DNA of 64,000 nt from Candidatus Latescibacterota bacterium (GCA_965203355.1 OZ241889.1:896001-960000); one strand, 5' to 3'. Shown: positions 16,607 through 50,702, numbered from the stretch's first letter. Numbers and translations: made by a program. Notes: a model not told the origin generated them from the sequence alone.

Positions 16607-16624
16607 GCATGGAGGTACCACGCG

Positions 16625-18003: not shown

Positions 18004-18048
18004 GCGACACTCGGAAATCGTTTTGTCGTTTCCGGCGGACTGAACACC

Positions 18049-18615: not shown

Positions 18616-18702
18616 GCCGACCGAATATAAATTGTCCCTATCTATTTACCAATGCACCGACCATTCGGTCGGCGCAGACACCCTTTGCATACGGAGGAAA
18701 TC

Positions 18703-19662: not shown

Positions 19663-19665
19663 CCC

Positions 19666-20883: not shown

Positions 20884-20892
20884 ACTAGGCGA

Positions 20893-22379: not shown

Positions 22380-22440
22380 GTGCGCCTCGCCTTGCTATTG
22401 TTGCAAACTCCTGCTACTTAAATGTGGATCGCTTGTTTAG

Positions 22441-24360
<1,920 letters not shown>

Positions 24361-27494: not shown

Positions 27495-27974
27495 ATGGCA
27501 AGAAAGTACTGGCTCGTCAAGTGCGAATTCGACGAGTGTTCCTTTGACGAGTTAAAGCAGCGGCCGCAAAGCACGGGTTACTGGCGAGGGGTGCGCAACT
27601 ACCAAGCGCGCAATCTCATCCGCGACAGCATGGCAAAGGGGGAGCTGGCGTTCTTTTATCAATCCAGTTGCGCCGAGCCGGGGATCGCCGGAATCGCGAC
27701 GATTACAAGAGCAGGGTACCCCGATCCCAGTCAATTCGACGACCAGCACCGCTACTACGACGAAAAATCCACGGTCGCCGACCCGCGTTGGTTTTCCTTT
27801 GACGTGAAGTGGAAACGCAAATTCAAACGGTTTGTCCACCTCGCCGATCTCAAGGTCAACGACAAGCTCGCCGACATGAAAGTGGTGCAGCGGGGTCAGC
27901 GGCTCTCGATCCAGCCGGTTGCCGAGCAGGAGTGGAGGGAAGTCTGCAAGATGGGCGGCGTTAGCCCGACGTGA
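27495..27974 (+). CDS. EVE domain protein
   Basis: YWLVKCE, W.GVRNYQARN, FFY.S, YPDPSQFD, RLSIQPV. Confidence 0.92.
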   Translation: MARKYWLVKCEFDECSFDELKQRPQSTGYWRGVRNYQARNLIRDSMAKGELAFFYQSSCAEPGIAGIATITRAGYPDPSQFDDQHRYYDEKSTVADPRWFSFDVKWKRKFKRFVHLADLKVNDKLADMKVVQRGQRLSIQPVAEQEWREVCKMGGVSPT

Positions 27975-28091
27975 ATGATTCGCCTGGGTTATCCAGTTCG
28001 CAGGCCGAGCCGAGGCCTGGACACCCGAAGAAAACGGCGGAGCGTGGGCTGCAACGCGATCAACGTGGTATTCAACTGAAAGGACTGAAGC

Positions 28092-28931
28092 ATGGAGTTG
28101 CTGCCGACGACTAATGCCGACGGGCGCGACGTCATCCCGATGAGCGAGGCCCAGCGGTACCGCTTCGATCTCAAGGGATTTATCCTCTTGCCCGCGCTGT
28201 TGAGCGAAGAAGAGCTAGTGTCGATCCGCGCTCACCAAATGAAATTTCTCTACGAGCGCGAGTCCCTGCCGCCGGATGAGCGCGACAATCACGGCGGCCC
28301 GTCGCAGATTTTGCTCGACCACCCAGCGGTAGTGGGCGTGCTCAACGAAGTGCTCTCGCATCAGGCACTGGCCAGCGAAGACTGCTACGGATTCCGCTAC
28401 GATCACACCTATACCAGCCATCGCCAAGCCGGACACGACAACTTCCGTCCGCACGGCGGCGGCGGGTACTTCAACTTTCGCGGCAGCTCGCACATCTACC
28501 AGATGCAGCCGGGCAAGGTGCATGCTGGATTGACGCGAGTTGTGTGGGAGCTCAACGAAGTCGGCGCGGGTGACGGGGGTACGCTTTTTCTGGCGGGCAG
28601 CCACAAGGCCGCTTTCCCTCGACCCGAAGAATTGAGCCAGCGCGACAGCTCGCTGTGGGAGAGCTACACCTGTCCAGCCGGTTCGGCGGTGATTTTCACC
28701 GAGGCCCTGTGCCATTCGGGTACGCGTTGGATCAACGAGCAGCGCGACCGGCTGAGCTTGTTCACTTGCTACGACACCGTCAATTCCAAGTGGGGCAAAG
28801 GGTGCCCGTCCGCCGAAGTGATCGCCTCGTTTCCCGCGAAGCGCCGCACGCTCTTCCGGGGCGTGTGGCACGGGATGAGCGACGTGCCCGGCATCAACAA
28901 ATACTACGAAGCAGCCAACCAAGCCGTTTGA
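28092..28931 (+). CDS. Phytanoyl-CoA dioxygenase-family Fe(II)/2OG enzyme with an HxG motif
   Basis: QRYRFDLKGF, PHGG, GGT.FLAGSHK, AGS.VIF.EAL.H.G, R.SL...Y. Confidence 0.85.
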   Translation: MELLPTTNADGRDVIPMSEAQRYRFDLKGFILLPALLSEEELVSIRAHQMKFLYERESLPPDERDNHGGPSQILLDHPAVVGVLNEVLSHQALASEDCYGFRYDHTYTSHRQAGHDNFRPHGGGGYFNFRGSSHIYQMQPGKVHAGLTRVVWELNEVGAGDGGTLFLAGSHKAAFPRPEELSQRDSSLWESYTCPAGSAVIFTEALCHSGTRWINEQRDRLSLFTCYDTVNSKWGKGCPSAEVIASFPAKRRTLFRGVWHGMSDVPGINKYYEAANQAV

Positions 28932-28950: not shown

Positions 28951-31677
28951 ATGAGCCAAACAGTTCTCTTCCTGCTCGATGGGATGGCCCTCGTCTATCG
29001 GGGTCACTTCGCGATGATCCGCAATCCGCGTATGACCTCAAAGGGCGTGAACACGTCGGCCGTTTTTGCTTTTGCCAACACCTTGCTCTCCATCGTCGAA
29101 AAGGGCGAGCCGACGCACATCGCCGTTGTCTTCGACACGCCTGAGCCGACGCACCGGCACCGCAAGTACGAAGAGTACAAAGCCCAGCGCGAGGCGATGC
29201 CCGAGGACCTGAGCCAAGCCCTGCCGTACGTATTCCGGCTCTGCGAGGCGTTTAACATCCCGGTTTTGCGCGAGCCGGGATGGGAGGCCGACGACGTGAT
29301 CGGCACGTTGGCCAAAAAGGCCGAGGCCGAGGGGTTTGCCACGTACATGGTCACGCCCGACAAGGACTACGGCCAGCTCGTTTCCGAGCGGAGCTTTATG
29401 TACAAGCCGGGCCGCGGCGGCGATGAGGCCGAGGTTTTGGGGGTGCCGGAGATTCTCGCCCAATGGCAGGTCGAGCGGATCGACCAAGTGATCGACGTGC
29501 TGGGGCTGATGGGCGACTCCTCGGATAATGTGCCCGGCGTCCCCGGGATCGGCCCCAAGACAGCGCGAAAGCTCATCGCCGAGTACGGCAGCATTGAAGC
29601 GTTGCTGGCGCACACCGATCAGCTCAAAGGCAAGCAGAAACAGAACGTAGAGGAATACCGGGAACAGGCTCTGCTCTCCAAGGAGCTAGTTACCATTGAG
29701 TGCGATGTGCCATTGGACGTGGGGCTGGCGGATTTGGCGAAAAAGGAATGGGATCGCCAGAAATTGGCGGCTCTCTTCTCCGAACTCGAGTTCAATACGC
29801 TGGGGCGGCGGCTCCTCGGCGACGAGTTTAGCGTTGAAAAGGATCCGGTCCACGGCCCGCTCAAAGGGGTGGCGGATGTGGAGCACGCCTATCAGCTCGC
29901 TGATACGCCCGACAAGCGGCAAGCGTTAATCGAGGCGCTGCTGGAGCAGCCGGCGTTTTGCTTGGACTGCGAGACTAACGGCCTCGACGTCCGGCAATGC
30001 GACTTGATTGGCTTGGCGTTTTCGTGGGCACCGGGCACGGGCCACTACGTGCCGCTGCCTAGGGAGCGGGCCGAGGTGCTGACCGTTTTAGAGGAATTCC
30101 GCCCGGTATTTGAAGGGGAAGTGTGCGAAAAAATCGGCCACAACCTCAAGTACGATCTCAGCGTCCTCCGCTGGCACGGTATGCGGGTGGAGGGACCTTT
30201 CTTCGACACGATGCTGGCGGCGACCTTGGCCGAACCAGAGCTAAGACGCAGTATGGACGAACTGGCCAAGAGCCTGCTCTCCTACTCGCCCAAACCCATA
30301 TCTGAGCTGATCGGCGAACGCGGTGGTGAGCAGCTGACGCTCTTGCAGGTGCCACTGGAGCAAGTGGCCGAGTACGCCTGCGAGGACGCGGACATTACCT
30401 TTCAGCTCGCCGCGGTGCTGCGGCCGAAAATAGAAGCCATGGATCAGCAGCGCGTTTTTTACGAGATCGAAGCTCCGCTGCTGCCGGTGCTGGTAGATAT
30501 GGAATACGAAGGCATCCGCATGGAAGGCTCGGCCTTGGCCGCGCTCTCGCGGCAGTTTGAGGAGGCCATTGAGCGGGCCAGCGAGCGCGTCTTTGCGCTC
30601 GCCGACGAGCGTTTTAACCTCAATTCGGGCAACCAGCTAGGCACCATTCTCTTTGAAAAGCTCGGGCTGGATCCCAATGCGCGGCGGACGCAAAAGACCG
30701 GCCAGTACCAAACCAGCGAACAGATCCTGCGCCGGCTGGCCAATCGCCACGAAATCGCGCAGCAGGTACTCAACTACCGATTGCACACCAAGCTCAAGTC
30801 AACGTACGTCGATCAGCTACCCAGCGCGGTCTTTAAGGCTACGGGGCGCATCCATACCAACTACGAGCAGCTAATGACTGCCACCGGGCGCATGAAATCC
30901 GACCGCCCGAACCTACAGAACATTCCCATCCGCAGCGAGCAGGGGCGGGAAATCCGCCGTGCCTTTGTGCCGCGCAGCAGTGACTATCTGCTCTTCTCGG
31001 CTGACTATTCGCAGATCGAGTTGCGGATCGCGGCGGCGCTCAGCCGCGACGAGGGGATGTTGGACACCTTCAACAGCGGCGGCGACATCCACTTGGCTAC
31101 GGCCGCAAAGATCTACCAAGTCGCAGAAGATCAAGCGACGCCCGAGATGCGGCGTCAGGCCAAGACGGTCAACTTCGGCATCATCTATGGGATCTCGCCC
31201 TTTGGACTGGCCGAGCGGCTCGATATTTCACGCGGGCAGGCCGCCGAGTTAATCAAGCAGTACTTCGCCCAGTATCCAGGGGTGCGGCACTATCTCGACG
31301 AGACCGTGGAGTTCGCCCGCGACAAGGGCTACGTCGAGACGGTGACCGGGCGGCGGCGCTATCTGCGCGACATCAACTCGCGCAATGCTACCACACGCAA
31401 AGGAGCCGAGCGCAACGCAATCAATACCCGCATTCAGGGCACGGCCGCGGATATGATTAAGCTGGCGATGAGCCGCATTCACCGGCTGATTCGCGAGCAG
31501 GGGTTCCGCTCGGCGATGCTGTTACAGGTCCACGACGAGTTGGTTTTCGACCTGCACCGAGACGAAATGGAGACCCTGCCGCCGCTAGTGGCGCGTGCGA
31601 TGCGCGAGGCCCTGCCCTTGGAGGTGCCGATAGAAATCGAGATGGGCACCGGCGAGAATTGGCTGGAGGCGCATTGA
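28951..31677 (+). CDS. polA: DNA polymerase I
   Basis: 5'-3' exonuclease (EADDVIGT, GDSSDNVPG), 3'-5' exonuclease (DCET, HNLKYD), polymerase motifs ADYSQIELR, KTVNFGIIYG, QVHDELVF. Confidence 0.98.
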   Translation: MSQTVLFLLDGMALVYRGHFAMIRNPRMTSKGVNTSAVFAFANTLLSIVEKGEPTHIAVVFDTPEPTHRHRKYEEYKAQREAMPEDLSQALPYVFRLCEAFNIPVLREPGWEADDVIGTLAKKAEAEGFATYMVTPDKDYGQLVSERSFMYKPGRGGDEAEVLGVPEILAQWQVERIDQVIDVLGLMGDSSDNVPGVPGIGPKTARKLIAEYGSIEALLAHTDQLKGKQKQNVEEYREQALLSKELVTIECDVPLDVGLADLAKKEWDRQKLAALFSELEFNTLGRRLLGDEFSVEKDPVHGPLKGVADVEHAYQLADTPDKRQALIEALLEQPAFCLDCETNGLDVRQCDLIGLAFSWAPGTGHYVPLPRERAEVLTVLEEFRPVFEGEVCEKIGHNLKYDLSVLRWHGMRVEGPFFDTMLAATLAEPELRRSMDELAKSLLSYSPKPISELIGERGGEQLTLLQVPLEQVAEYACEDADITFQLAAVLRPKIEAMDQQRVFYEIEAPLLPVLVDMEYEGIRMEGSALAALSRQFEEAIERASERVFALADERFNLNSGNQLGTILFEKLGLDPNARRTQKTGQYQTSEQILRRLANRHEIAQQVLNYRLHTKLKSTYVDQLPSAVFKATGRIHTNYEQLMTATGRMKSDRPNLQNIPIRSEQGREIRRAFVPRSSDYLLFSADYSQIELRIAAALSRDEGMLDTFNSGGDIHLATAAKIYQVAEDQATPEMRRQAKTVNFGIIYGISPFGLAERLDISRGQAAELIKQYFAQYPGVRHYLDETVEFARDKGYVETVTGRRRYLRDINSRNATTRKGAERNAINTRIQGTAADMIKLAMSRIHRLIREQGFRSAMLLQVHDELVFDLHRDEMETLPPLVARAMREALPLEVPIEIEMGTGENWLEAH

Positions 31678-31687
31678 GGGGTACAAG

Positions 31688-31888
31688 ATGACCGAATACT
31701 CATCGGCTAAAAAAATCAAGCTATCGTCCGATGTTGTGAGCGACGCGTACCAGTTGACGCTGGACGAACTGACGCGCCCGCGGCAAACGGAACACAGTCT
31801 CAGTATAGATCGCGCCTTTCCCGAGGAATTTGTCAACGATCTTTCCCGTCAGGAGGTGTTCAACAAACATCTCTTTCGTCCAAAATAG
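31688..31888 (+). pseudogene. 5' fragment of a larger gene, possibly a DUF1156-type adenine DNA methyltransferase
   Basis: SIDRAFPEEFVNDLSRQEVFNKHLFRP resembles N-termini of such methylases. The ORF stops exactly where a polA 3'-end copy begins. Confidence 0.45.
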
Positions 31889-31931
31889 AAATGGGTACCG
31901 ACGAGAATTGGTTGGCCGAGTACTGAGGGGT
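31885..31931 (+). repeat. Degenerate copy of the polA 3' end (31636-31682)
   Basis: Ungapped 37/47 nt; IEMGTDENWLAEY* vs IEMGTGENWLEAH*, both followed by GGGGT. Confidence 0.85.
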
Positions 31932-32000
31932 GCAGGCTGAAGTAGTTGTACACTTAACATGCACTGCATACGTTTTGTCTCAATAGTAAGGAGGGTATAT

Positions 32001-32660
32001 CTGGCAAAGTGGATTCAAGTTAAACCGGCGTATGTCAACAGTAAAACCGACGGCCCAATCGTAACACTTGTTAATCAATCTATACGCTTTAACCAAGAGG
32101 CGGCTCGCAAGGTCGGCGGTGATCGATTCACGCGAGTTGGCATATATATTGATGACGAGGATCGTCGAATCGGATTTAAATTCTTTGACAGGGATGAGCA
32201 GAATACCTACAAACTGATGAAGGGCAAAGGTGGGAGCTTTTCTGTACGTATTAAGAAGCTAACTAAACAGTATTTTTGGATTGGTATAGCTATGGAAGGA
32301 TCCCTTGAGGAGAGACGATTCGAACTTAATACTGATGATAGTATCTACTTCATCAAGCTAATGCCATCCTTTGAGGAAAGCGCATACAGTGTAGAGTCTA
32401 TACCGAACAACACGAGAGGCGTGTATCGCCTCCGAGACCACTCTGAAACAATCGTGTATATCGGACAGGGACATATTGCCGAGCGCGTCAGGGAGCACAT
32501 CAGTAAGGACTGGGGAAAGTCGATAAGTAAGATAGAATACTTCGAGACCGACAATGAGAAAGACAGAATTCAGTGGGAAAAATACTTTCTCGATAGGTTT
32601 AAAGAAAAGCAAGGGGAGTTTCCTAGACACAACGCTATCGGCGGTATCCACAGGCATTGA
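32001..32660 (+). CDS. Two-domain protein with a C-terminal GIY-YIG nuclease domain
   Basis: GVYRL......VYIGQG.I..R..EH...E.....P.HN. AT-rich. AGGAGGG precedes CTG at 32001 (alternative ATG at 31959). Confidence 0.7.
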   Translation: MAKWIQVKPAYVNSKTDGPIVTLVNQSIRFNQEAARKVGGDRFTRVGIYIDDEDRRIGFKFFDRDEQNTYKLMKGKGGSFSVRIKKLTKQYFWIGIAMEGSLEERRFELNTDDSIYFIKLMPSFEESAYSVESIPNNTRGVYRLRDHSETIVYIGQGHIAERVREHISKDWGKSISKIEYFETDNEKDRIQWEKYFLDRFKEKQGEFPRHNAIGGIHRH

Positions 32661-32695
32661 GCAATATAGTTTCTTAAAAGAAAGACACTAGAACA

Positions 32696-33739
32696 ATGGA
32701 CGAGCGCATTCGCGGCTTTGGCAGCGACAATCACGCTGGAGTCCACCCCGAGGTCATGGTGGCCCTACAGCGAGTCAACGTGGGGCACGTGCATTCCTAC
32801 GGGGACGACCCCCACACCGCCGAAGCTGTCGCGCTTTTTCGCGAAGTGTTGGGATCAGCGGTGGAGGTTTTCTTTGCATTCAACGGCACTGGGGCTAATG
32901 TTACGGCCCTTTCCGCGCTCACGCGATTTTACGACGCGGTGATTTGCTCGGACACCGCGCATCTCCACATCGACGAATGCGGTGCCCCCGAGCAGGTGGC
33001 CGGCGTCAAGCTCCTGACCGCGCCCGCGCCCGACGGCAAAATCACTCCTGAGGGAGTCGCCGCCCACGTTGCTGGTCGCGGCGACGAGCATCAAGTGCGC
33101 CCTCGCGTGGTGTCGATTACTCAGGCTACGGAACTGGGCACTGTTTACGCGCCGAGTGAGATTCGCGCCATCGCCGATTGCGCCCACGAGCACGGGATGT
33201 ATTTGCACGTTGATGGAGCGCGGATTGCCAACGCAGCGGTGGGCTTGGATTTGGAACTGCGGGAGATTACTGGGGATTGCGGGGTTGATGTGCTGTCGTT
33301 TGGCGGCACCAAAAACGGCCTGATGTTGGGGGAAGCGGTGGTCTTTTTCAAGCCCGAGCTGGCCGAAGACTATCGCCGGGCGCGCAAGCAGGGGATGCAA
33401 CTGGCCTCTAAGATGCGCTTTGTCGCCGCGCAGTTTACGGCCCTGCTGACCGGCGACTTGTGGCGCCGCAGCGCCCAGCACGCCAACGCCATGGCGCAGG
33501 TGCTGGCCGAGCGCGTCCGGCCCATTCGAGGAGTGGAGATAATCTATCCCGTGCAGGCCAACGCCGTTTTCGTGCGGTTGCCGGTGGAAGTGATTCCCGT
33601 TTTGCAGCAGGAATTTTTCTTTTATCCTTGGAATCAAGGCGAGGTGCGCTGGATGACCTCGTTCGACACGGAAACCGAGGACATAGAGGCGTTTGCGACG
33701 CTTATTGAAACTACTATGGAGGAAAGGAGCATATCGTGA
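32696..33739 (+). CDS. ltaE: Low-specificity L-threonine aldolase
   Basis: FGSDN, YG.D, NGTGAN, H..DECGAPE, HVDGAR..NA, GGTKNG, SKMRF. Confidence 0.92.
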   Translation: MDERIRGFGSDNHAGVHPEVMVALQRVNVGHVHSYGDDPHTAEAVALFREVLGSAVEVFFAFNGTGANVTALSALTRFYDAVICSDTAHLHIDECGAPEQVAGVKLLTAPAPDGKITPEGVAAHVAGRGDEHQVRPRVVSITQATELGTVYAPSEIRAIADCAHEHGMYLHVDGARIANAAVGLDLELREITGDCGVDVLSFGGTKNGLMLGEAVVFFKPELAEDYRRARKQGMQLASKMRFVAAQFTALLTGDLWRRSAQHANAMAQVLAERVRPIRGVEIIYPVQANAVFVRLPVEVIPVLQQEFFFYPWNQGEVRWMTSFDTETEDIEAFATLIETTMEERSIS

Positions 33740-34569
33740 TCATCGACACCCATACCCACTTCTACGATCCCACGCGGCCCGCCGGGGTGCCTTGGCCGCC
33801 GGCTGACAACGAACGGCTCTACCGCACGGTACTGCCCGAACACCACCGCGCGCTCGCCGCGCCCGAAGGCGTGACCGGGACGGTGGTGGTGGAGGCCAGT
33901 GCGTGGCTGGCGGACAATCAGTGGATCTTGGATTTGGCCGCTGATGACCCTTGGATCGTCGGGCTGGTGGGCCACGTCGATCCCAACCGGGCGGGCTTCA
34001 AAAGCGATATTGACCGCTTGGCGGGAAACGCGCTCTTTCGCGGCATTCGTTGCGGCAGCGGGTACTTTGCCGACTTGGAGGCCGGGTCTTTTCTCGCTGA
34101 CATGGAGCACCTCGTCGCGCGGGGCTTGCAGCTCGACGCGCTGGTGGGGCCGGAGCACTTGGGTCAAGTGGTAGAACTGGCCCGGCGGCTACCGGAATTG
34201 CGCCTCGTCATCAATCACTGCGGTGGGGTCGGGACCGACGGTGGCGATCCCAATCCGGCGTGGGTGGACGCCATAGCCCAAGCGGCCGCGCAGCCGCAGG
34301 TCTTTATGAAGGTCTCGGCGATCATGGAGCAAAGCAGGGTGGAGCCGGTGCCGGAAGAACTGGATTTTTATCGCCCGATCCTCGACGCCATGTGGGACGC
34401 CTTTGGCGCAGACCGGGTGATCTACGGGAGTAATTGGCCGGTCTGCGACCGAGCGGGGAGTTTCAAGGCCGCCCTCTCCATCGTCAAAGCGTACTTTGGT
34501 GAAAAGGGCGCGACCGAGCAGTACTTCTGGCAAAACAGCCAGACCGCCTACAAGTGGCCAGACCGCTAA
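33736..34569 (+). CDS. Amidohydrolase_2-family protein (sugar lactonase-like)
   Basis: IIDTHTHF, VINH, MKVS, FGADR..YGSNWPV. Confidence 0.88.
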   Translation: MIIDTHTHFYDPTRPAGVPWPPADNERLYRTVLPEHHRALAAPEGVTGTVVVEASAWLADNQWILDLAADDPWIVGLVGHVDPNRAGFKSDIDRLAGNALFRGIRCGSGYFADLEAGSFLADMEHLVARGLQLDALVGPEHLGQVVELARRLPELRLVINHCGGVGTDGGDPNPAWVDAIAQAAAQPQVFMKVSAIMEQSRVEPVPEELDFYRPILDAMWDAFGADRVIYGSNWPVCDRAGSFKAALSIVKAYFGEKGATEQYFWQNSQTAYKWPDR

Positions 34570-34579
34570 GGAGACGCCC

Positions 34580-35902
34580 GTGAAGTTCTGGATTTTCACC
34601 CACAGCGACCAGCCGCTCGAACACTGGCTCGAAGGCTACCGGCAGCGCTTTGATGCTTGGGAAGAAGGTGGCGTCGAGGGGATTATCGTCGGTCGCATGC
34701 AGTTTAAGCAGGACGATGGTTCGGTGATCGCCAGCTATCCGGTCAATAGTAAGCTCTACGCCGAGCACGGTGTCGAGCCGCCGGAGGAGACGCCCCGCGA
34801 TCTAGAAAAAGAAAAAAAGCTCCAGGCTATGATGGACGACGCAGCGGCGCGTGGCTGGCAGATTATGACCTTTGGCATGGGGCGCGGTGGGCTGGTCGGG
34901 CTGGAGGATTTGATCGCGTTCTACCCGCAGGTTCACGGCGTCATTATCGACGGCCCCGGCGAAAATCACTACGAGCTAGCGTTCCACCACGGCGGGGAAC
35001 TGCTGGAACTCCGGCCCGGCGAAGCTCGGCTTTTTGCCTCTATGGGAGCCGATGTTGGGCGGATGCAGCGCGGCATTGACCATCTGCGGCAGGCCCTGTG
35101 TCGGCTGACGCCCCAACGGGTGCGCTACCTCGCCCAAGGCGGCCTTTTTTCGGTATTGAACTTAATTGACCTCGATGAGGACGGGTTGTATTGGTTGCGG
35201 ATGCGGCAGGAGAAGTCTCGCCGCTCTTGGGCAGACGCGCGCGCAATAGTCGATCAGGCTTCGCGCAAAATCGAGTTGGGCGGCATTCCGCGCACGGCTG
35301 TCTTTTCTGGGTTGACCGGACAGGACTACGAGCGGATGGCCGGCTACTTCGATTATATATTCCCCAAGCACTACTACTGGCATCGCGGATTTGATGGCCT
35401 TTACGGCACGGTGGCGCGTTGGGTGCAGACGTTGGGGGCGTGGAATCCGGGGCTAACGGAAGAAGACGCTTTTGCCGTGGTCGAGGCGCTTTTTGGCATC
35501 AAGCTGCCTCAGGTGCAGACGCTTTTTGATTTGGAAGCTGGCTTTCCCGCTGAGTTTTTCAGCGAGGTCGTGTACGGCGAAACGCGCCGCGCCTTGGCGG
35601 CGGCTGGTGCCGACAAGGTGATTTGCTGGGTCTCGACTGGCCGCACACCGCATGCTGGTGACCCCATGCCCGCGCGCGATCTGCTCGGCATTTTGCGGGC
35701 GTCCCAAGCGGCTGGGCTCAAGCGTTTCGTCTTTCATCCAGAGGTCATGGGCGCGTCCGAGTGGCGGGTTTTGACGGAAGTGTGCGGGACGCTGTGGCGC
35801 GAGGATCCGAGCGGGTACTGGCCTTCGGGCACGGAGAAGCCAGATGCGTTTAATGGGGGACGCAAGAAAGAGAATTTTCACGCTGCCGAGGTTGAGAACT
35901 GA
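34580..35902 (+). CDS. Conserved-looking hypothetical protein (440 aa)
   Basis: GTG after AAGGAG; host-like codon usage; contains PKHYYWHRGFDGLYGT and PHAGDPM; no family recognised. Confidence 0.7.
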   Translation: MKFWIFTHSDQPLEHWLEGYRQRFDAWEEGGVEGIIVGRMQFKQDDGSVIASYPVNSKLYAEHGVEPPEETPRDLEKEKKLQAMMDDAAARGWQIMTFGMGRGGLVGLEDLIAFYPQVHGVIIDGPGENHYELAFHHGGELLELRPGEARLFASMGADVGRMQRGIDHLRQALCRLTPQRVRYLAQGGLFSVLNLIDLDEDGLYWLRMRQEKSRRSWADARAIVDQASRKIELGGIPRTAVFSGLTGQDYERMAGYFDYIFPKHYYWHRGFDGLYGTVARWVQTLGAWNPGLTEEDAFAVVEALFGIKLPQVQTLFDLEAGFPAEFFSEVVYGETRRALAAAGADKVICWVSTGRTPHAGDPMPARDLLGILRASQAAGLKRFVFHPEVMGASEWRVLTEVCGTLWREDPSGYWPSGTEKPDAFNGGRKKENFHAAEVEN

Positions 35903-35952
35903 TGGTCTCTGCCCTGTGGAGACCATGGCGCTGGTCGTACTTATCTTTAGAC

Positions 35953-36058
35953 AGGAAATTTTCTGTTCCTCATTGCGAAATTTGAAGAGGGGCTGGCAGG
36001 CCGGGCAGCCTGGGGCTTATAAGGAAATTTTCTGTTCCTCATTGCGAAATTTGAAGAG
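35953..36058 (+). repeat. Perfect 37-bp direct repeat with a 32-bp spacer
   Basis: AGGAAATTTTCTGTTCCTCATTGCGAAATTTGAAGAG at 35953-35989 and 36022-36058. Confidence 0.9.
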
Positions 36059-36067
36059 AGGCTATTG

Positions 36068-36256
36068 ATGCCCCGTTGGAATATCGTCGTTTCGGAGGAT
36101 ACAGACCGCACTGTTCGGAGCTATTTGGCCCGAACGGGCGGGAAAAGAGGAGACCTATCGCGTTTCGTCGCCCGTGCGGTCCGCCAAGCGATTTTTTGGG
36201 AGACCGTTGACTCCATCTGGGAACGCAACAAGCACCTGAAGGATCTAGGAGATTAA
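36068..36256 (+). CDS. Ribbon-helix-helix protein (antitoxin-like), probably C-terminally truncated
   Basis: MPRWNIVVSEDTDRTVRSYLARTGGKRGDLSRFVARAV has a beta-alpha-alpha pattern; the tail runs into the RBS of the next gene. Confidence 0.6.
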   Translation: MPRWNIVVSEDTDRTVRSYLARTGGKRGDLSRFVARAVRQAIFWETVDSIWERNKHLKDLGD

Positions 36257-36258
36257 AA

Positions 36259-36897
36259 ATGTACGACGAATGGAAACTCATCTACTCGGCTTTAGTTACC
36301 GACATCATGGACCAACTCGGCTACCGCGATCAAGCCATGACTCCCGACATCCGTCCCAGCCGCCCCGACGCTTTTATTGCTGGTCCGGCTCTCACCATTG
36401 ACGCGCACGCCGATACCAGCCCCACTCCCGATCCCTACGGCCAAATTTTTGCCGCGTACGATCAAGCTAGTGCCGGCGATGTCTTCGTCATCGCGACCAA
36501 CGGCGAAGAGCGCTCCGGCCTGTGGGGCGAGCTCCTCTCCACGGCGGCCCAAGCGCGCGGCGTCGAATCCGTGCTGACCGACGGCTTGGTGCGCGATGTG
36601 CGCCAGATGAACGCCATGGGCTACCACTGCTTCTGCAAAGGCTACTCGCCGCTCGATTCGGCGGGCCGCATCCTCGCCAGAACGATCAACCAACCCATCA
36701 CTTGCGGCGGCGTGCAGGTTCATCCCGGGGATTTTATGCTAGCGGACTACGATGGCGTGGCGGTGATTCCGGCGGCGATCAAAAGCGAAGTCTACAAAAA
36801 GGCGATGGAAAAACTCGCGGGGGAAAATGTCGTGCGCGATGAATTGGCTGCGGGGCGGTCGCCGCGGGAGGTTTTTGATCGCTACGGGATATTGTGA
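36259..36897 (+). CDS. RraA/HMG aldolase-family protein
   Basis: SALVTDIMD, WGELLSTAA..RG, DGLVRD, GDF..AD.DGV.VIP. Confidence 0.9.
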   Translation: MYDEWKLIYSALVTDIMDQLGYRDQAMTPDIRPSRPDAFIAGPALTIDAHADTSPTPDPYGQIFAAYDQASAGDVFVIATNGEERSGLWGELLSTAAQARGVESVLTDGLVRDVRQMNAMGYHCFCKGYSPLDSAGRILARTINQPITCGGVQVHPGDFMLADYDGVAVIPAAIKSEVYKKAMEKLAGENVVRDELAAGRSPREVFDRYGIL

Positions 36898-37083
36898 TTG
36901 TTGGACGCTTATAGACGACTCCGATAAGCGGGATTGAGCATCGGCTAGTTTGAAGGCACCCTTTTGACGGCCTCTCCATGAAGCAAGTCGATGGCCTTTG
37001 ACCTTAGCGTCCCAGGCGTTAAGAGCTTTCTTTCCCCTCTAAGCTGTGGTATATTCTACTATCCAATGATAGGAGGTACAAAG

Positions 37084-37614
37084 ATGCCTAGCCAGGAAAC
37101 GGAACGCCTCAGCAATCAAATTACTTGGCTTTATAACGAATATCGAACTGCTCTTTATAACGTCGCTTACTATGGAAAGCGACTAAAAAAAACTAAGCGG
37201 CTCAACTTTACTATCGAAGCCATTTTAGCTCTTGCTGCTCCCGGATTTATCGGAACATGGCTTTTTTTAGACGATCTTTTTATACCAAAGATTTTGGGAC
37301 TTGTTGCCTCAATCGTTGCTGTGATTAAACCGCTTTCTTCTATCAGCAATAATCTTCAGCGATATACACGTCTCTATACTACGTATAAAGAGATCTCAGC
37401 CGAATTGGAACAACTAGTAGAAAAAGTACGCGTTGAACAAGACTTTTCCCCAGAAACTAGCATCCGGTTTGGGATTCAAGTTAAACGAATGGGGAGTTTG
37501 GCTGCATTCGATGATCCGGAGATGAATCCCGAAGAGGAAGAAGTATGCTACAGGAAAGTCAACGAGCAGATACCTGCTGATACTCTATGGGTTCCAGCTA
37601 CTGCGGAGATGTAA
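37084..37614 (+). CDS. Two-TM membrane protein, SLATT-like effector candidate
   Basis: ATG after AGGAGG; N-terminal helix, two adjacent TM segments, then a helical cytoplasmic tail; AT-rich. Confidence 0.55.
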   Translation: MPSQETERLSNQITWLYNEYRTALYNVAYYGKRLKKTKRLNFTIEAILALAAPGFIGTWLFLDDLFIPKILGLVASIVAVIKPLSSISNNLQRYTRLYTTYKEISAELEQLVEKVRVEQDFSPETSIRFGIQVKRMGSLAAFDDPEMNPEEEEVCYRKVNEQIPADTLWVPATAEM

Positions 37615-37766
37615 TGAGCAAAAGACGATCTGGTCCACCTTCAGGAGCAAAACCACCGCGCCCTTGGCCACAGCCGACTCCAAAACCACGGTCCACTCCA
37701 CCAGTCAGCCCACAACCTACTCAGCCGGCCGGTCCGCCAGACAAGCCACTACCTAGAAAAAAGTAG
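37614..37766 (+). CDS. 50-aa proline-rich basic small protein
   Basis: TAATG coupling to the upstream gene; MSKRRSGPPSGAKPPRPWPQPTPKPRSTPPVSPQPTQPAGPPDKPLPRKK (18 Pro). Confidence 0.55.
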   Translation: MSKRRSGPPSGAKPPRPWPQPTPKPRSTPPVSPQPTQPAGPPDKPLPRKK

Positions 37767-37831
37767 CGGCTAATTGCGTCAACCACCGCTAGCCACCCCC
37801 AATAAGGCCGAGATCCAAAGTCCACCGCGGC

Positions 37832-38001
37832 GATTTCATGCTAGCGGACTACGATGGCGTGGCGGTGATTCCGGCGGCGATCAAAGGCGAAGTCCACAAA
37901 AAGGCGATGGAAAAACTCGCGGGGGAAAATGTCGTGCGCGATGAATTGGCTGCGGGGCGGTCGCCGCGGGAGGTTTTTGATCGCTACGGGATATTGTGAT
38001 T
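37832..38001 (+). repeat. Direct-repeat copy of the RraA-family gene 3' end (36730-36899)
   Basis: 170 bp with 3 substitutions; includes the stop codon; offset 1102 bp. Confidence 0.97.
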
Positions 38002-38228
38002 TATACCTCAGTCAGCTCAGGAACGTGTTCTTCCTCATATTTCTCAATCAGCACACTTATGACCTCCATTAGTGAGGCTAGGGGATGATTTTCTTCCTCG
38101 CCTACTACATCAATCAAATCGTCTAATACAGTTACAAGCCGTTGATATTCGCTTTCTGCATGGGGGACGAATACAACGGGGGTCAGCATGGGCCATACGT
38201 CTTGAGCGGTTTGTATTTTTGCTTCCAT
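38001..38228 (-). CDS. HigA-type antitoxin, N-terminal domain only (no HTH)
   Basis: EY..L..LDDLID.VGE.ENHPLASLME....LIEKYE; directly downstream of a higB remnant. Confidence 0.7.
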   Translation of the reverse strand: MEAKIQTAQDVWPMLTPVVFVPHAESEYQRLVTVLDDLIDVVGEEENHPLASLMEVISVLIEKYEEEHVPELTEV

Positions 38229-38231: not shown

Positions 38232-38346
38232 TTACTCTTTCCATTTTCCCTTATTATACTCATTGTGCGTTAGTATTGCACGAATATAGATTTTCCGTCG
38301 GTTATAATGTACCGCTGCGATAAGACGCGCCTTGTTACCACCAATT
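38232..38346 (-). pseudogene. 3' half of a HigB toxin gene
   Basis: IGGNKARLIAAVHYNRRKIYIRAILTHNEYNKGKWKE*. The upstream frame is unrelated, has no ATG and hits a stop. Confidence 0.8.
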
Positions 38347-38418
38347 GGAGAATTATCTCCACGTAATCGGCGTATAAAAGGACCTTTGTTTTTGTCTGTT
38401 TCGCAATACCTTCCTTTA

Positions 38419-38525
38419 CTCGTCGCTCGTTGCCCCCAAATAGGTATGGTTAGCCAAGTAAAGACTGAGGAGGAAGCATTGAAAAAACCTCAAAGAGACT
38501 ACCGAGCTGTACTGGGAAGAAGTCG
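38419..38525 (+). pseudogene. Frameshifted HicB remnant
   Basis: LVARCPQIGMVSQVKTEEEAL / KNLKETTELYWEEV, joined across one extra A in an A6 run; aligns with hicB at 1598-1795. Confidence 0.7.
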
Positions 38526-38568
38526 CAACCCCCGAAAGTTCAGGAGATTCGGGCAAGTCCGCCCGCCC

Positions 38569-40233
38569 CTAGCTCTTGCGCGTCTCCAAGTGCGACGGCA
38601 GCCAGCCGACAACGGCCTGTTCGGAGTCTTCGTTCCAAAAGAAATACAGCCGAAAACAACGGCGCACATCGCGTGTGCTCCCCTTCTTCAAGTGTCGGTT
38701 GAGCAGATGCCGCTGACCAGCGTAGCGCACGAAATACATGTCGCCGTGTTGTCCGTGCCCATCTCCGGCAAAAGTTTGGGTCTCCTCGATGTTCAAGTTC
38801 AAACAAGCCTGCTTGAAAGCGCCGACTTTAGAAGACCCGAAGCGCCGCATGGGAACGTAGTAGTCTCGGAGCAGAAGTAGAGCTTTGTACAGGAAAGTAA
38901 GGTCTTCGTATTTGCTTTTTTTGGCGGCGTGTTTAGCGCGTGGCAGCACTTCGACAACCCCCGCAAGATTTTTGTCGCACCACTCATCAAAGCCGTTCAG
39001 GTCGCTGGGAATCTCCGGCTCTTTTGGGCTTGGCCTGTCGGCTGATGCCCTTTCGAGCATTTCTACGCGGGCGCGTAAGTTCCGCGCACGTTGAGTCGCA
39101 GTCGCTGCCTTGGCTAAGGCTATATCGCGCTCTTGCTCTACGGACTTCAGAACGCCTTCAAAAGTCTCTTCCATCTCTTCGCGCTCGTCTTGGAGCTCGA
39201 AGAGATGGGCCTCGGCCAGTTCGAGCCTTTCTTCCATGCTTGCATTCGCCGCCTTGGCTTGCTCTCGGCGACGCTCGGTTGCCAGCCGCCGAATTTTGGC
39301 AAAGGACGGGAAGTCGCTGTCGGAATCTGAACGCTCGACCGTGTCTTTTAATACGCGGTCCGCCAAAAACTCCGCGTACGCCGCACGGCCTCCGTCCCAA
39401 TTCTGAATGCGCCGGGCCGTTGCCCAAGGGTGTTGATGCGGTTCATCCTCGGGACTAAAACTCGGGCGATAGTTTCTGACGGCTCCATTGAATACAGAAA
39501 ATTCTCGCCCAAGCTCGTGGGTCAAGCGAAAGGTGGCCGGCGCGGTGATGACCGCTACGTGGGCGGTGCCAAAAGTCCTACGGCATAGATCGTCAATCGG
39601 GAATGCTGCGTCTTTGGCATCGGTGGAGCCTGTAGGTAGCGCCGCGACAATAACAGCGGCCCGGCGCGTTGCGTCGCGAATTAAGGCGCACAGCAATGGA
39701 ACTTCGTCGCTAGCAACGAGCCACGGAGCTGGACGCAATACCCGACGATCCAGCAAGCCGGTGCCGATGTTTGCGAGCTGCCGGACGAGATCGGGAATGT
39801 AGCGCTTGATGGGGATATGGGTTCCGCGCTTGGTACACACGAGGCGGGTGCTGACGGCGATTTCTCGCTCGGCTAACCGCTTTAGCCCGACCTCTGTAAC
39901 CCACGTGAGTTGTGGAACGGACTTGTCGGCGTCGTCGAGCCGCGCTACCCAAGTCGCTGGATTGTCCAACGACACGGCCGCGGCGTACTGGGCTCCAATT
40001 TTCTCGGTCTCAAAGGGCTGCCCTTTCCAAGCCTGCGAGGGCAGCGGTTGGCCAACGCGCTCGGCTATCCATCGCAAGACCGCTTTCTGGGCCATTGCGA
40101 AAGGAGCGTTGCCGTTGTGTACGCGGACCTTGATGGAAATTTGGCTGACCGGCAACACAGACGAGTACTGCTCCTGCATACTCGCTTGTACGGGCCGCAA
40201 CTGGTCTGCCAACGATGTGTTGTAAGGACTCAT
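38569..40233 (-). CDS. Uncharacterised defence-like protein: N-terminal domains, coiled coil and RelE-like C-terminal domain
   Basis: Coiled coil around residues 320-400; C-terminal HLKKG.TRD.RRCFRLYFFW...VVGWLPSHL. The start at 40233 is inferred. Confidence 0.55.
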   Translation of the reverse strand: MSPYNTSLADQLRPVQASMQEQYSSVLPVSQISIKVRVHNGNAPFAMAQKAVLRWIAERVGQPLPSQAWKGQPFETEKIGAQYAAAVSLDNPATWVARLDDADKSVPQLTWVTEVGLKRLAEREIAVSTRLVCTKRGTHIPIKRYIPDLVRQLANIGTGLLDRRVLRPAPWLVASDEVPLLCALIRDATRRAAVIVAALPTGSTDAKDAAFPIDDLCRRTFGTAHVAVITAPATFRLTHELGREFSVFNGAVRNYRPSFSPEDEPHQHPWATARRIQNWDGGRAAYAEFLADRVLKDTVERSDSDSDFPSFAKIRRLATERRREQAKAANASMEERLELAEAHLFELQDEREEMEETFEGVLKSVEQERDIALAKAATATQRARNLRARVEMLERASADRPSPKEPEIPSDLNGFDEWCDKNLAGVVEVLPRAKHAAKKSKYEDLTFLYKALLLLRDYYVPMRRFGSSKVGAFKQACLNLNIEETQTFAGDGHGQHGDMYFVRYAGQRHLLNRHLKKGSTRDVRRCFRLYFFWNEDSEQAVVGWLPSHLETRKS

Positions 40234-40270
40234 CGAACCTACTTCTGCCGAATCAAATAACAGAGTGGAA

Positions 40271-41407
40271 CTATGCAGCCAGTGCCTGCGCAAAGTCCGC
40301 ACACAAATCCGCGGCGGCCTCAATGCCGCATGACACGCGGACCAAGCCGTCGGCGATGCCCATAGCCGTCCGCTCCGCTCGACTCAAGCCGCTGTGCGAC
40401 GTGGTGACTGGCCGAGTAATGAGCGTTTCTACCCCGCCGAGACTGGGGGCTGACGCCGGCAGAACCAGCTTGGACAGCAAGCGCTCGGCCGCCTCCACGC
40501 CCCCGCACAACTCAAAGCTCAACACGCCACCCGCCCCGGCAAATAGCCGCTGCGCCCGCTCGTATTGCGGATGGCTTTTCAGCCTTGGGTAATTAACCTG
40601 CGTCACCTGCGCCTGCTCGGCTAAAAAGCGCGCCAACCGCAACCCATTTTCGTCGTGCTGCCGCATCCTCAGCGACAGCGTCTTCAAGCCCCGTTGCAGC
40701 AAAAAGCAGGCGTGGACATCCAGCGAGCCGCCCAAGTGATTCAGCTTGTGTCGAATGGCTTTGACGTGCTCAGCCGAGCCGACGACCACGCCCGCGACGA
40801 GGTCTGAATGGCCGTTGAGATACTTGGTCGCGCTGTGTAGTTCTAGGTCAAATCCGATTTCCAGCGGGCGGAAGTTGCACGGCAAGGCAAAGGTATTGTC
40901 GATCAGCGACACGAGCCCGTGGGCGCGGGCAAATTCCACGACCGCCTCTAGATCGGCGACTTCGAGCAGCGGATTGGTCATGGTCTCCACGTAAATCGCC
41001 CGGGTCTCGGGTCGCAGCTTGGCGGCCCACGTCTCAGGCGCATTGCCCGCGATAAAGTCGTAGCTCAGCCCCAAGCCCGGCGCGTCCTGCGTCACAAAGC
41101 TGTGTGTGCCGCCGTAGAGGCAGTCTTGGATTAGCAGGTGATCGCCGCTGTTGAGCATGGCTATCAATGCGGTGGTGATCGCCGCCATCCCGGAGCTGGC
41201 GACCAAGGCGTCCTCGCCGCCGCAGATGGCGGCCAGTTTGGCGTGCAATGCGCGGTGGTTGGGCGTGTTGTTGAGGCGGAGATAGCGGACGGCGTCGTAG
41301 CCCTGCTCGTCTTGCGAGACAAAAGTCGAGCTCTGGAAGATCGGCGTCACCACGGCCCCGTTGATGCGCTCCTCGCCAGCGTGGACGAGGCGGGTCTGAA
41401 TGTCCAT
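40271..41407 (-). CDS. Cys/Met metabolism PLP enzyme (cystathionine gamma-lyase/synthase family)
   Basis: PIFQSSTF, SSGMAAI, YGGT, DNTFA, HSATKYLNGHSD, SLGGVETL. Confidence 0.93.
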   Translation of the reverse strand: MDIQTRLVHAGEERINGAVVTPIFQSSTFVSQDEQGYDAVRYLRLNNTPNHRALHAKLAAICGGEDALVASSGMAAITTALIAMLNSGDHLLIQDCLYGGTHSFVTQDAPGLGLSYDFIAGNAPETWAAKLRPETRAIYVETMTNPLLEVADLEAVVEFARAHGLVSLIDNTFALPCNFRPLEIGFDLELHSATKYLNGHSDLVAGVVVGSAEHVKAIRHKLNHLGGSLDVHACFLLQRGLKTLSLRMRQHDENGLRLARFLAEQAQVTQVNYPRLKSHPQYERAQRLFAGAGGVLSFELCGGVEAAERLLSKLVLPASAPSLGGVETLITRPVTTSHSGLSRAERTAMGIADGLVRVSCGIEAAADLCADFAQALAA

Positions 41408-41426
41408 TGAGATTTCCTTAGCTGGT

Positions 41427-43502
41427 TTACCGGGCAAATTGGGTGAGCAATCGCTCGTATAGCCGAGTGAAATCCCGGCGGCCATTGTCGCGGTTGTAAG
41501 CGTAGCACATGGGGTTGGGGTTGATTTCTATAATGGAGAAACCGTCCGCGCCGTGAATGAGGTCAATGGCGTAAAAACCGAGCCAGTATATGCCGGCCAC
41601 TTGCGCGGTTAGCTGCTGCATGTGCGCTAGCAGGGCCGCGTCCTCCACGCGCACGGCCCGCCCGGTGGCCTGATGCAGCGGATTGAGATCTCCATCGGCA
41701 CCTACGGCCTCGCTCTCCTTGCGGTAGGCCAGCAACAGTTCGGCGCGGCTGGCGACGACCCGATACTCCGGCCCGGCCACGTATTGCTGGGCCAGCGCGA
41801 TATTGTCCAAAAAGCCGCTGTTGGCAAAGAGGCATTCGAGCCGCTGGCCGAGGTCTGTTGCGTTGCGTTCCAAGAACACGCCCTGCGCCAGCGAGCTACG
41901 ACACTTTTTGACCAACAAGGGGAACTCGAACCGCGCTACTATCTCCTCGACGATCTCCGCGATTGAAGTGTGCGTCTTGTAGCGGTCGAAGCGCGCGTCG
42001 GCCAGCGGATTGAAGAGCTTGAGCGTATCCGGGACTGGCAAGCCGGCGGCGGCGAAATCCTCGTATTGGTACGCCTTGTCTTCGGCGAGCCGGGCTTCGA
42101 CGTAGTCGTTGAAGGGATGCTTGTTGCGCCAGAAGCGGAGGGGCCGCCGTCCGCCCGACAGCTTGAGCCGTGTGCGGTCGTCTGAGATCCACGCGCAGAT
42201 GAGTCCCTGTCGCCGGGCCGCCTCGGCGACACATTCCAGATTCTCCAGTGCCATGTCTTCGGTGATGCCGTCGCGCGCGCCGGGCAGGTTGAAAAATTCC
42301 CGCGCCCGCGCTACCAAGTGCAGCGACCCGGCCACGCAGACTCGGCCTTTGCGCCCGGCTAACGTCAAAGCGCGCTGGAATGCTTGGCCGTTTGCTGGCA
42401 CCTGCTCGATGGCTAGCCCGTCCGGCGCTAGGCTTGCTAGCCCGGCTGGGTCTTGCGCCTGTGGATGGTCCGACGAAGTCAGCAAGACCCGCTGTGCCAC
42501 CGGCGCTAGGGCGCGCAAAATCCCGGCGGCATCGTGCCCTGTTCCCACGCCGACGACTAGGACCCATGCGTCGCCAGTCAGCCGCTGTAACTCCCCAGCC
42601 AACGCCGCGGCCGCCGCTGGATTGTGTGCGCCATCGAGCAAGACCAAGGGCTTCTCGCGCGCCACTTCAAAACGGCCCGGCCAGCGATGGGCCGCGGCGA
42701 CTTGGTGCGCTATGGCGTCGTCTAGGCCCCGGACGAGTTCCTGCGCCGCAGCAAGAGCCAGCCGCGCATTTTCCGCGTAGGTCGCCGGACGGCCCGTTAG
42801 GCACTCCGCTCCGGCGATTTGCAACTTCACGGCTCGTTTTGTGACGGTCTGTCGGATTAGGTCCATCACCTCGGGGGGCTGCGCCGCCGTAGTAATGAGC
42901 GGGCGACCCGCCCGGGCGATGTGCAGCTTGTCAGCGGCGATTGCCGCCAAAGTATGGCCCAGCAGATCCACGTGGTCTAGGCCGATGGCCGTCAGAATGG
43001 CCATCTCCGAGTCCCAAGCGTTGGTCGCGTCGTAGCGCCCCCCAAGCCCGACCTCAAAAACCCCGAACTCCACGCCCTGCTGAGCGAAGAGATGGGCCGC
43101 AAGGCCGGTCAGGGCCTCGAACTTGCTAAACGAACCCAAGGCCTCCCGGCCAAAATCGCGGGTGCAATCGTCGAGACGCGCCACCGCGTCGGCCCATTGT
43201 TCCTTGCTGAGAATCTCGCCGTCAATGCGGATCCGCTCGCGCTGGGTGTGCAGGTGCGGCGAAGTGTACAGCCCGGCCTGGTGGCCGTGTGCCTTTAGGA
43301 TGGCGGCGAGCAAGCTGGCGACCGTCCCTTTGCCGTTGGTGCCGCCGACAATGACTGAGCGGAAGCGCGTCTGCGGGTCGCCGAGGCGCGCTAGTAGGGC
43401 GCGCATCCTCGGCAGGTACGCCTCGATTGGCCCGAGTGCTGGACGGCCGACCTCCCAGTCGGGCAAGGTGTCCAAATAGCGTTTGGCGCGAAAGTAATCC
43501 AT
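41427..43502 (-). CDS. folC: Folylpolyglutamate synthase/dihydrofolate synthase fused to a C-terminal ATP-grasp domain
   Basis: GTNGKGT, YTSPHL....ERI, EVGLGGRYDATN, LDH, WPGRFE, LDGAHNP; then EDKAY, FPLLVK..SS.AQGV, QQYV.G.EYRV, AIDLI, IEINPNP. Confidence 0.85.
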   Translation of the reverse strand: MDYFRAKRYLDTLPDWEVGRPALGPIEAYLPRMRALLARLGDPQTRFRSVIVGGTNGKGTVASLLAAILKAHGHQAGLYTSPHLHTQRERIRIDGEILSKEQWADAVARLDDCTRDFGREALGSFSKFEALTGLAAHLFAQQGVEFGVFEVGLGGRYDATNAWDSEMAILTAIGLDHVDLLGHTLAAIAADKLHIARAGRPLITTAAQPPEVMDLIRQTVTKRAVKLQIAGAECLTGRPATYAENARLALAAAQELVRGLDDAIAHQVAAAHRWPGRFEVAREKPLVLLDGAHNPAAAAALAGELQRLTGDAWVLVVGVGTGHDAAGILRALAPVAQRVLLTSSDHPQAQDPAGLASLAPDGLAIEQVPANGQAFQRALTLAGRKGRVCVAGSLHLVARAREFFNLPGARDGITEDMALENLECVAEAARRQGLICAWISDDRTRLKLSGGRRPLRFWRNKHPFNDYVEARLAEDKAYQYEDFAAAGLPVPDTLKLFNPLADARFDRYKTHTSIAEIVEEIVARFEFPLLVKKCRSSLAQGVFLERNATDLGQRLECLFANSGFLDNIALAQQYVAGPEYRVVASRAELLLAYRKESEAVGADGDLNPLHQATGRAVRVEDAALLAHMQQLTAQVAGIYWLGFYAIDLIHGADGFSIIEINPNPMCYAYNRDNGRRDFTRLYERLLTQFAR

Positions 43503-50585: not shown

Positions 50586-50702
50586 TCGCAACTTCCCAAA
50601 GCCGCGAAATGGTGCAGATGGCGTCACGGATCGTTTTTCAATGGGACGTGTCCGCGTTCAGCGCGGCCTCACCGTTGCAACGCGATCGGATGAATTTCGT
50701 GG

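Follow-up and report, generated by a model that had tools for sequence, protein, structure and literature searches.

Duplicated ends of polA and an RraA-like gene in a Candidatus Latescibacterota chromosome may mark insertion-hotspot alleles stacked in tandem

Defence and toxin–antitoxin genes are often found in chromosomal hotspots without any genes of mobile elements, and the route by which they arrive is poorly understood. The question is raised in a compact form by a 64,000-nt stretch of a Candidatus Latescibacterota bacterium (GCA_965203355.1 OZ241889.1:896001-960000; hereafter the window), which comes from a 4.17-Mb contig of a metagenome-assembled genome. Behind polA and behind a gene of the RraA-like family, the 3' end of the gene is present a second time, stop codon included, with other DNA between the two copies. 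Here we show that both duplications are real and far above chance, and that the spaces behind polA and RraA are insertion hotspots in this Latescibacterota lineage. As to how the second copies came about, we favour the reading that each hotspot holds two alleles in tandem (‘allele stacking’), joined through homology-anchored, recombinase-free integration, and we put its probability at roughly 0.55.

Gene ends were scored by comparing the last 200 nt of a gene plus 20 nt with the next 3 kb, ungapped and at +1/-1 per position, alongside 393 random controls. The controls gave a mean of 12.7 (standard deviation 1.9, maximum 28), against 168 for the RraA-like gene and 32 for polA, which bears out the original prediction of a duplication at both genes. 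The RraA-like gene end at 36718-36899 recurs at 37820-38001, a start-to-start distance of 1102 nt, with 175/182 nt identical (96%) and the stop codon within the repeat; blastn returns a 170-nt core at 98.2% identity, equal to the 167/170 given for it originally. At polA, 31634-31691 is repeated at 31883-31940 (45/58 nt, 78%; start-to-start 249 nt), and this repeat takes in the last 44 nt of the gene, including the stop, and 14 nt past it. A third duplication, weakly suspected at a creatininase gene (15674-16606), does not stand. The sole stretch shared there is 14-15 nt long (approximately 16524-16541 and 16615-16632), which is chance level, and its first copy lies 65-80 nt upstream of the stop and excludes it; the score is 12 in the scan, in which the second copy was cut, and about 15 by manual count, inside the control range.

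Scanning species-representative genomes with polA yielded 58 loci, among them 28 close relatives (L001-L028; polA identity 78-95%) that are labelled Candidatus Latescibacterota or Gemmatimonadota and are in many cases chromosome-level. The core order (EVE, PhyH, polA, lyase, amidohydrolase, 468-aa protein, RraA and the gene for a Cys/Met-metabolism pyridoxal-phosphate (PLP) enzyme, below CysMet) is conserved, and the intervening spaces are highly variable. In the 20 of the 28 relatives that have both genes, the polA-lyase gap measures 88-155 nt in 7, 281 nt in 1 and 1.4-3.2 kb in 12. The original prediction had proposed comparing empty with filled alleles, and by that comparison the polA site is empty in 7/20 and differently filled in 12/20; the cassettes are not fixed in all relatives, the sites being empty or differently filled. 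At polA the filling is a ~600-740-aa N6/N4 DNA methyltransferase, in some loci accompanied by a NotI-like endonuclease; a Dam-like methylase paired with a NotI-like endonuclease (and a DpnII-like protein added in two loci); or, in L023 only, an unrelated aminotransferase-type gene. The gaps on either side of RraA vary like the polA gap, and other gaps of the relatives contain YhcG-type nucleases, PIN and HicAB toxin–antitoxin pairs, a TIR-TPR protein and a few insertion-sequence transposases. In the window, host genes have a GC content of ~60-65% and cargo one of 42-45%. The gene ends themselves are nearly always single: the polA end in 27/28 relatives and the RraA end in 12 of the 13 with a complete gene end.

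The EVE-PhyH gap, 117 nt in the window (27974-28092) and up to ~8.3 kb in the relatives, with a TIR-TPR protein in L008, is a third hotspot of this neighbourhood.

The RraA locus, hotspot 2, is the clearest case and is made up as follows.

36259..36897, plus strand: RraA-like/aldolase family gene, anchor of hotspot 2 (Pfam RraA-like, E 1e-35)
36718..36899, plus strand: RraA end copy 1, within the intact gene (repeat search, blastn, alignment)
36898..36923, plus strand: native RraA downstream sequence, behind copy 1 only
36924..37819, plus strand: low-GC foreign cassette (GC 0.35-0.48 across 37120-37480)
37820..38001, plus strand: RraA end copy 2, a relic including the stop, fused directly to the next unit
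38001..38228, minus strand: 75-aa open reading frame (ORF), possible antitoxin partner (tblastn 89-92%; no significant family)
38232..38420, minus strand: HigB-type toxin gene, C-terminal fragment (Pfam HigB_toxin, E 1.3e-12, profile positions 42-73 of 74)
38413..38528, plus strand: HicB-like antitoxin gene, frameshifted relic (115-nt module in L002, L013, L016, L019 and L027)
38569..40323, minus strand: 584-aa candidate defence protein (PADLOC HEC-07, E 1.7e-171)
40271..41485, minus strand: Cys/Met-metabolism PLP enzyme (CysMet), convergent core gene and right border of hotspot 2 (Pfam, E 3e-121)

The RraA-like protein is well conserved (92-96% amino acid identity in 15 relatives), and the native sequence behind its stop is matched over 15-26 nt in L001, L008, L013, L020, L021 and L027, as well as behind the second copy in L019. 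Because the RraA insert opens with this native sequence, which is absent behind copy 2, the incoming DNA would have come from the same locus of a relative. The copies are 96% alike, and either is at most 93% identical to the corresponding sequence of 13 relatives. Of the seven mismatches between them, five lie within its opening 21 nt at the left edge of the repeat, as would be expected if gene conversion homogenises the inner part.

The foreign cassette encodes a SLATT-like protein with two transmembrane segments (36991-37614, likely start 37084) and an overlapping proline-rich ORF of 59 aa (37587-37766). Two hydrophobic helices are evident in the SLATT-like sequence, which reaches 17.7 bits in NCBIfam SLATT_1 against a cut-off of 41; matches to this family are weak in 5/5 members (the window and four relatives), with a best E of 4e-4 and all under the cut-off. 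Four homologous clusters were found in a large protein collection and no match by tblastn to plasmids, and Foldseek with the predicted model returned long-helix chance matches only. Searching 36924-37819, including the GC-richer 37615-37819, by blastn (word 7) and tblastx against the window and the 58 loci gave low-complexity proline matches only. PADLOC matched neither this protein nor the GIY-YIG-like protein of the polA locus.

Behind copy 2 the hotspot has a different content. The 75-aa ORF adjoins the RraA end also in L016, L019 and L027, and the HicB gene that is a relic here is intact in L019, where it has a HicA partner (Pfam HicB-like and UPF0150 E<1e-3, HicA E 3.9e-15). The HEC-07 protein is present in only three relatives covering the region (L003, L021 and L027), and the CysMet gene is syntenic in L018, L019, L020 and L021.

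Two further features were seen around this gene. The left edge of copy 2 (37812-37833) is 77% complementary to 22 nt near the gene end (36859-36880 and 37961-37982), which may be chance or a trace of joint formation. On the other side, a 63-aa ribbon-helix-helix ORF (36065-36256, Pfam RHH_6) abuts the RraA start, and just 5' of it lie 42-nt direct repeats (35953-35994 and 36022-36063, 98%); since in L001 the same ribbon-helix-helix gene is followed by a PIN toxin gene, what is left in the window seems to be the relic of an antitoxin gene, possibly together with its operator repeats.

The polA locus, hotspot 1, has the same outline with other contents.

28951..31677, plus strand: polA, 908 aa, anchor of hotspot 1 (Pfam DNA_pol_A and both exonuclease domains)
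31634..31691, plus strand: polA end copy 1 (repeat search; score 32 against the control mean of 12.7)
31688..31888, plus strand: DNA methyltransferase gene relic, a 66-codon ORF (tblastn, DNA alignment, Pfam N6_N4_Mtase in relatives)
31883..31940, plus strand: polA end copy 2, a relic, reading IEMGTDENWLAEY and then the stop, in register
31959..32660, plus strand: AT-rich GIY-YIG-like gene, 233 aa, GC 0.44 (C-terminal GIY-YIG nuclease domain and unknown N-terminal domain)
32696..33739, plus strand: beta-eliminating lyase/threonine-aldolase-like core gene, right border of hotspot 1 (Pfam; syntenic in 20 relatives)

Codons 1-65 of the relic correspond to the start of the ~600-740-aa methyltransferase that is found behind polA in nine relatives (L001, L002, L003, L004, L005, L008, L010, L021 and L025; tblastn identity 79-92%). 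Collinearity with that gene stops at 31882/31883, the exact start of the second polA end. The piece between the polA copies is thus a gene relic and no working defence cassette. The AT-rich foreign cassette that the original prediction placed between the copies is what we see at RraA; at polA, however, the methyltransferase relic occupies that place and the AT-rich gene comes after copy 2.

The polA C-terminus, GE(N/T)WLEAH followed by the stop, is kept in 28/28 relatives. Copy 2 encodes a C-terminus ending in DENWLAEY, which occurs in 0/28, and hence has either aged and decayed or come from a more distant source. By manual count, 4 of its approximately 10 changes are synonymous, too few to tell drift from foreign origin. 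A third, vestigial copy of the polA end before the methyltransferase start in L001-type loci was rejected, its local alignment scores of 5-7 being chance.

For the gene behind copy 2, the resemblance to known proteins lies in the C-terminal 80 residues (UvrC N-terminus, E 7e-4; DUF7508, E 3e-4), and its homologue in L002 matches Pfam GIY-YIG at E 3.5e-3, all of these sequence matches being below cut-offs. Foldseek comparison of the predicted model with the UvrC GIY-YIG domain gave a template modelling (TM) score of 0.61-0.67, a root-mean-square deviation of 2.0-2.4 and E 5e-3, with a predicted local distance difference test (pLDDT) of 84-91 for the domain. The GIY-YIG fold is thus weakly supported by three methods. 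The protein has only four homologous clusters in the large protein collection and no tblastn match to phages. Its four homologues begin with ATG where the window has CTG (codon 15, with a good ribosome-binding site upstream; 31959-32003), and judging by the sequence the gene may be poorly translated or decaying in the window.

Comparable structures exist in the relatives, with other joints. In L002, a chromosome-level assembly, an intact 716-aa methyltransferase gene without a restriction endonuclease stands before a 37-nt copy (97%) of that genome’s own polA end, behind which comes the GIY-YIG homologue (75% identical). The methyltransferase is joined to polA at position -44 after codon 65 in the window and at about -45 after the methyltransferase 3' end in L002, the polA relic is 58 nt in the window versus ~45 nt, and the spacer from polA to the methyltransferase start is 10 nt versus 75 nt. 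In L019 the RraA end is likewise duplicated (232 nt, 92%), around a toxin–antitoxin cassette. Its first unit consists of the 75-aa ORF and intact HicB/HicA, then the last 14 CysMet codons with their stop, fused to RraA at -232, compared with -182 for the left joint in the window. This CysMet-RraA joint implies that the first unit spans the entire hotspot between the two core-gene ends, like a circularised or tandemly joined allele. A nested 41-nt duplication, common to L016 and L019, comprises the RraA stop region and a hairpin and surrounds a CysMet-derived piece of 56 nt. L014 has a 93-nt repeat (82%) that starts 8 nt past polA and flanks 6.7 kb, and in L027 pieces of the 75-aa ORF are duplicated (19787-20007 and 22354-22542; 88-95%) around HEC-07 and the HicB relic, which stand in reversed order relative to the window.

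Downstream copies of gene ends, for ORFs of at least 150 aa, were found for 6/419 genes in Latescibacterota sequence versus 0/283 in loci of other phyla. Among the six, the L011 case is a 2.1-kb tandem gene duplication (17099-19196 and 19280-21368, 85%; a gene with a secretion-signal domain), a different phenomenon, and the L003 case was rejected as a palindromic intergenic repeat that overlaps the gene by only 11 nt. Separately, L015 has a 319-nt direct repeat (2416-2734 and 5932-6245, 93%) flanking 3.2 kb.

Genes that could have moved the cargo were sought by family. As originally stated, the window shows no integrase, transposase or att-like core: none of its 59 ORFs matches an integrase or transposase family in Pfam, no integrase or resolvase occurs among 111 proteins chosen to represent the 28 related loci, and no constant att core is present, since the repeat boundaries differ between the independent insertions in the window, L002 and L019. 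A scan of 31-41 kb with Rfam, which includes an attC model, gave no family at E<=1 and hence no attC-like structured site. The only tRNA-type gene in the window is a tmRNA at 2053-2412, 29 kb from the sites. With neither IntI nor attC, the arrangement is not an integron. It resembles an integron or an integrase-less array in that small promoter-poor genes follow one fixed position in the chromosome, for the most part oriented like the upstream gene; it differs in that the separators are relic gene ends and that there are two units only, so the integron-like stacks proposed at the outset are an analogy and go two units deep. Integrative elements that rebuild the 3' end of a protein gene or tRNA gene are also familiar, such as phage 21 and e14 at icd. 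Here, as there, what is left of the original gene end is a partial pseudogene, displaced to beyond the insert, but the loci lack an integrase and a constant core, the inserts are 0.25-2.2 kb and the junctions vary between events, unlike an integrase-borne island.

The reading that we favour accounts for these features with host recombination. In the hotspots, different strains carry different small restriction-modification, toxin–antitoxin or defence-type genes. DNA of a related strain, with the same gene end and different cargo, would pair with the resident end by host homologous recombination and integrate either through a single crossover of a circularised fragment (Campbell type) or through one homologous end and an illegitimate joint upstream in the recipient (homology-facilitated illegitimate recombination, HFIR). 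Either route would displace the resident gene end, together with its cargo, as a relic, and neither would need a dedicated recombinase or a fixed att site. The polA stack would then consist of polA-end plus methyltransferase relic, followed by polA-end' plus GIY-YIG gene, and the RraA stack of RraA-end, native downstream sequence and SLATT-like cassette, followed by RraA-end', toxin–antitoxin relics and HEC-07. The hotspot versions behind the two copies differ, and most are also seen alone in relatives. We favour a homology-anchored route because of the differing joints and repeat lengths, the same-locus left flank of the RraA insert, the CysMet-RraA joint of L019 and the lack of recombinase genes. 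The original prediction of gene termini as recombination anchors therefore stands in so far as a differing hotspot version behind each copy fits single crossover or HFIR; its picture of accreting defence genes does not extend to the polA insert, a relic and not a defence cassette.

Several observations weigh against this reading. We infer the recombination route and the donor from structure alone, and neither the SLATT-like cassette nor the GIY-YIG allele is ever found alone beside the gene end in the 28 relatives. The RraA copies are nearer to each other than to any of the 13 relatives compared, which in-situ duplication or later gene conversion would fit equally well. As regards DNA uptake, a DprA gene was found only in the relative L014. 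It is possible that a recombinase is encoded elsewhere in the 4-Mb genome. Finally, the 6/419 of the scan is no genome-wide rate, given that all loci represent one chromosomal region and that 2/6 are other phenomena.

For two alternatives, the main difference from the favoured reading is where the DNA came from. In the first, a double-strand break at the gene end, staggered or resected, would have captured unrelated foreign DNA, with fill-in duplicating the target in situ. The 96-98% identity of the RraA copies, closer to each other than to any relative, agrees with this, as do the restriction-modification systems that form the polA cargo in relatives, the class of genes for which the process was proposed. 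We nevertheless regard it as unlikely, given that the RraA insert opens with 26 nt of native downstream sequence, missing behind copy 2, and that the opposite core gene contributes its end to the L019 joint, both of which point to same-locus rather than unrelated DNA. In the second, illegitimate recombination between sister chromosomes would have duplicated the hotspot in tandem, one cargo being lost later or replaced by double crossover. The L019 joint, in which the CysMet end meets RraA -232, has precisely the form that such a duplication would leave; the plain 2.1-kb tandem duplication nearby in L011 and the left-edge divergence of the RraA repeat, which suggests ongoing gene conversion between the copies, fit this too. 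However, at least two steps would be required at every locus, and no cargo is common to both units in the window, L002 or L019, so this course of events also seems improbable.

Other explanations invoke an enzyme or an artefact. Duplication of a gene end is the classic footprint of site-specific elements, and all insertions start ~2-26 nt past the stop codon, as might be expected if a tyrosine or serine recombinase encoded elsewhere acted on an att site overlapping the gene 3' end; but no recombinase gene is present in the 64-kb window or within 22 kb in the 28 relatives, the repeat lengths and left joints vary (58 versus ~45 nt; 182 versus 232 versus 41 nt) and the inserts are just 0.25-2.2 kb, which leaves this very unlikely. 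Equally little credence is due to an assembly artefact in which two strain variants of each hotspot were joined. The original prediction had named such a misassembly, the source is metagenome-assembled and the two units do resemble alternative alleles, but the two paths of a variant bubble would come together again at the downstream gene they share and not at RraA -182, the copies differ at 7 positions within a contig of 4.17 Mb, and analogous structures with other joints occur in the independent assemblies of L002 and L019. For polA only, the GIY-YIG protein might be a free-standing homing endonuclease whose target is the polA 3' end, with copy 2 as a cleavage-resistant version of it. The weakly supported fold is compatible with this idea, as is the fact that in the window and in L002 alike the gene immediately follows a diverged polA end. 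It is hard to credit all the same, because the family has only four homologous clusters and gives no sign that it homes or has several sites, both genomes have a seemingly normal polA end alongside the gene, the start codon in the window is CTG and the RraA locus is left unexplained.

The footprint as such is already known for restriction-modification systems, and the phenomenon is not new, as it matches insertion with long target duplication (Furuta, Abe and Kobayashi 2010; PMC2853133, in the portion of that report available to us). According to that portion, such insertions comprise all types of restriction-modification system in several phyla and have long, variable repeats and no mobility genes; the repeats are target sequence, are single in related genomes and often overlap a gene 3' end. 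Its authors make a tentative link to double-strand breaks, and most of the cases are in naturally competent species (PMC2853133). The loci described here share with that class repeats longer than 30 bp (58 and 182 nt in the window, 37 nt in L002 and 232 nt in L019), a target present once in an insert-free relative (the polA site is empty in 7/20), inserts shorter than 20 kb without mobility genes (249 and 1102 nt) and, at polA in relatives, restriction-modification cargo (the methyltransferase with or without the NotI-like endonuclease). They lack the paired restriction and modification genes in the insert, which here holds a SLATT-like gene or a methyltransferase relic. They also differ from the cases in the available text of PMC2853133 in that the clearest one has SLATT-like cargo and L019 toxin–antitoxin genes, and in belonging to the uncultivated phylum Latescibacterota; a same-locus origin of the incoming DNA, giving two stacked alleles, is a feature of our loci that this text does not describe.

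The closest experimental counterpart is in Escherichia coli, in which single crossover of circles with a shortened lacZ-end fragment produced gene-end duplications of 109-950 bp in 56/60 clones (PMC3240628, in the part available to us). The likeness to Campbell-type integration and HFIR lies in a single homology anchor, the insertion of heterologous DNA, partial duplication of the gene end and the absence of a dedicated recombinase, and the difference in the setting, laboratory events with engineered plasmids (PMC3240628) versus events that we reconstruct from natural genomes. Both RraA units open with the same gene end, a homologous segment beside heterologous cargo. New here are the non-restriction-modification cargo, the phylum and the evidence for alleles of the same hotspot.

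Elsewhere in the window, the tmRNA (minus strand) has a low-GC HicA/HicB-like pair (1360-1801) past its 3' end, a classic island position; a copy of the tmRNA 3' end was sought in 1-2039 and none was found. Downstream of the creatininase gene, an islet at 16625-18003 contains a UPF0175 antitoxin-like ORF (16625-16783, E 7e-13) and encodes a 406-aa protein that matches PD-(D/E)XK weakly (GC 0.51), with no gene-end duplication. Another lower-GC islet, at 50527-53700, includes an AbiEii-type nucleotidyltransferase toxin gene (51244-52173). The end of a penicillin-amidase gene (50572-50609) resembles 54364-54401 within an AcrB-type gene (38 nt, 79%), probably by chance, and a GC-rich hairpin-like element is present in two intergenic 30-nt copies (12722-12751 and 12783-12812, 97%).

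What would allele stacking mean for these genomes? One extension, which we consider rather doubtful, is that the relic gene ends act as portable recombination anchors, such that a unit of gene end and cargo could loop out through RecA recombination between the repeats, travel to another strain in circular form or as a fragment and insert again wherever the same core gene is present. If true, the integron cassette cycle would have a counterpart based on homologous recombination, and these genomes a regular, recombinase-free way of building and reshuffling arrays of defence genes. The mechanism becomes testable in read data, through deletion or circle junctions, and in transformable model bacteria. 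For the hotspots themselves, displaced gene ends would be molecular fossils that record the order in which their genes arrived.

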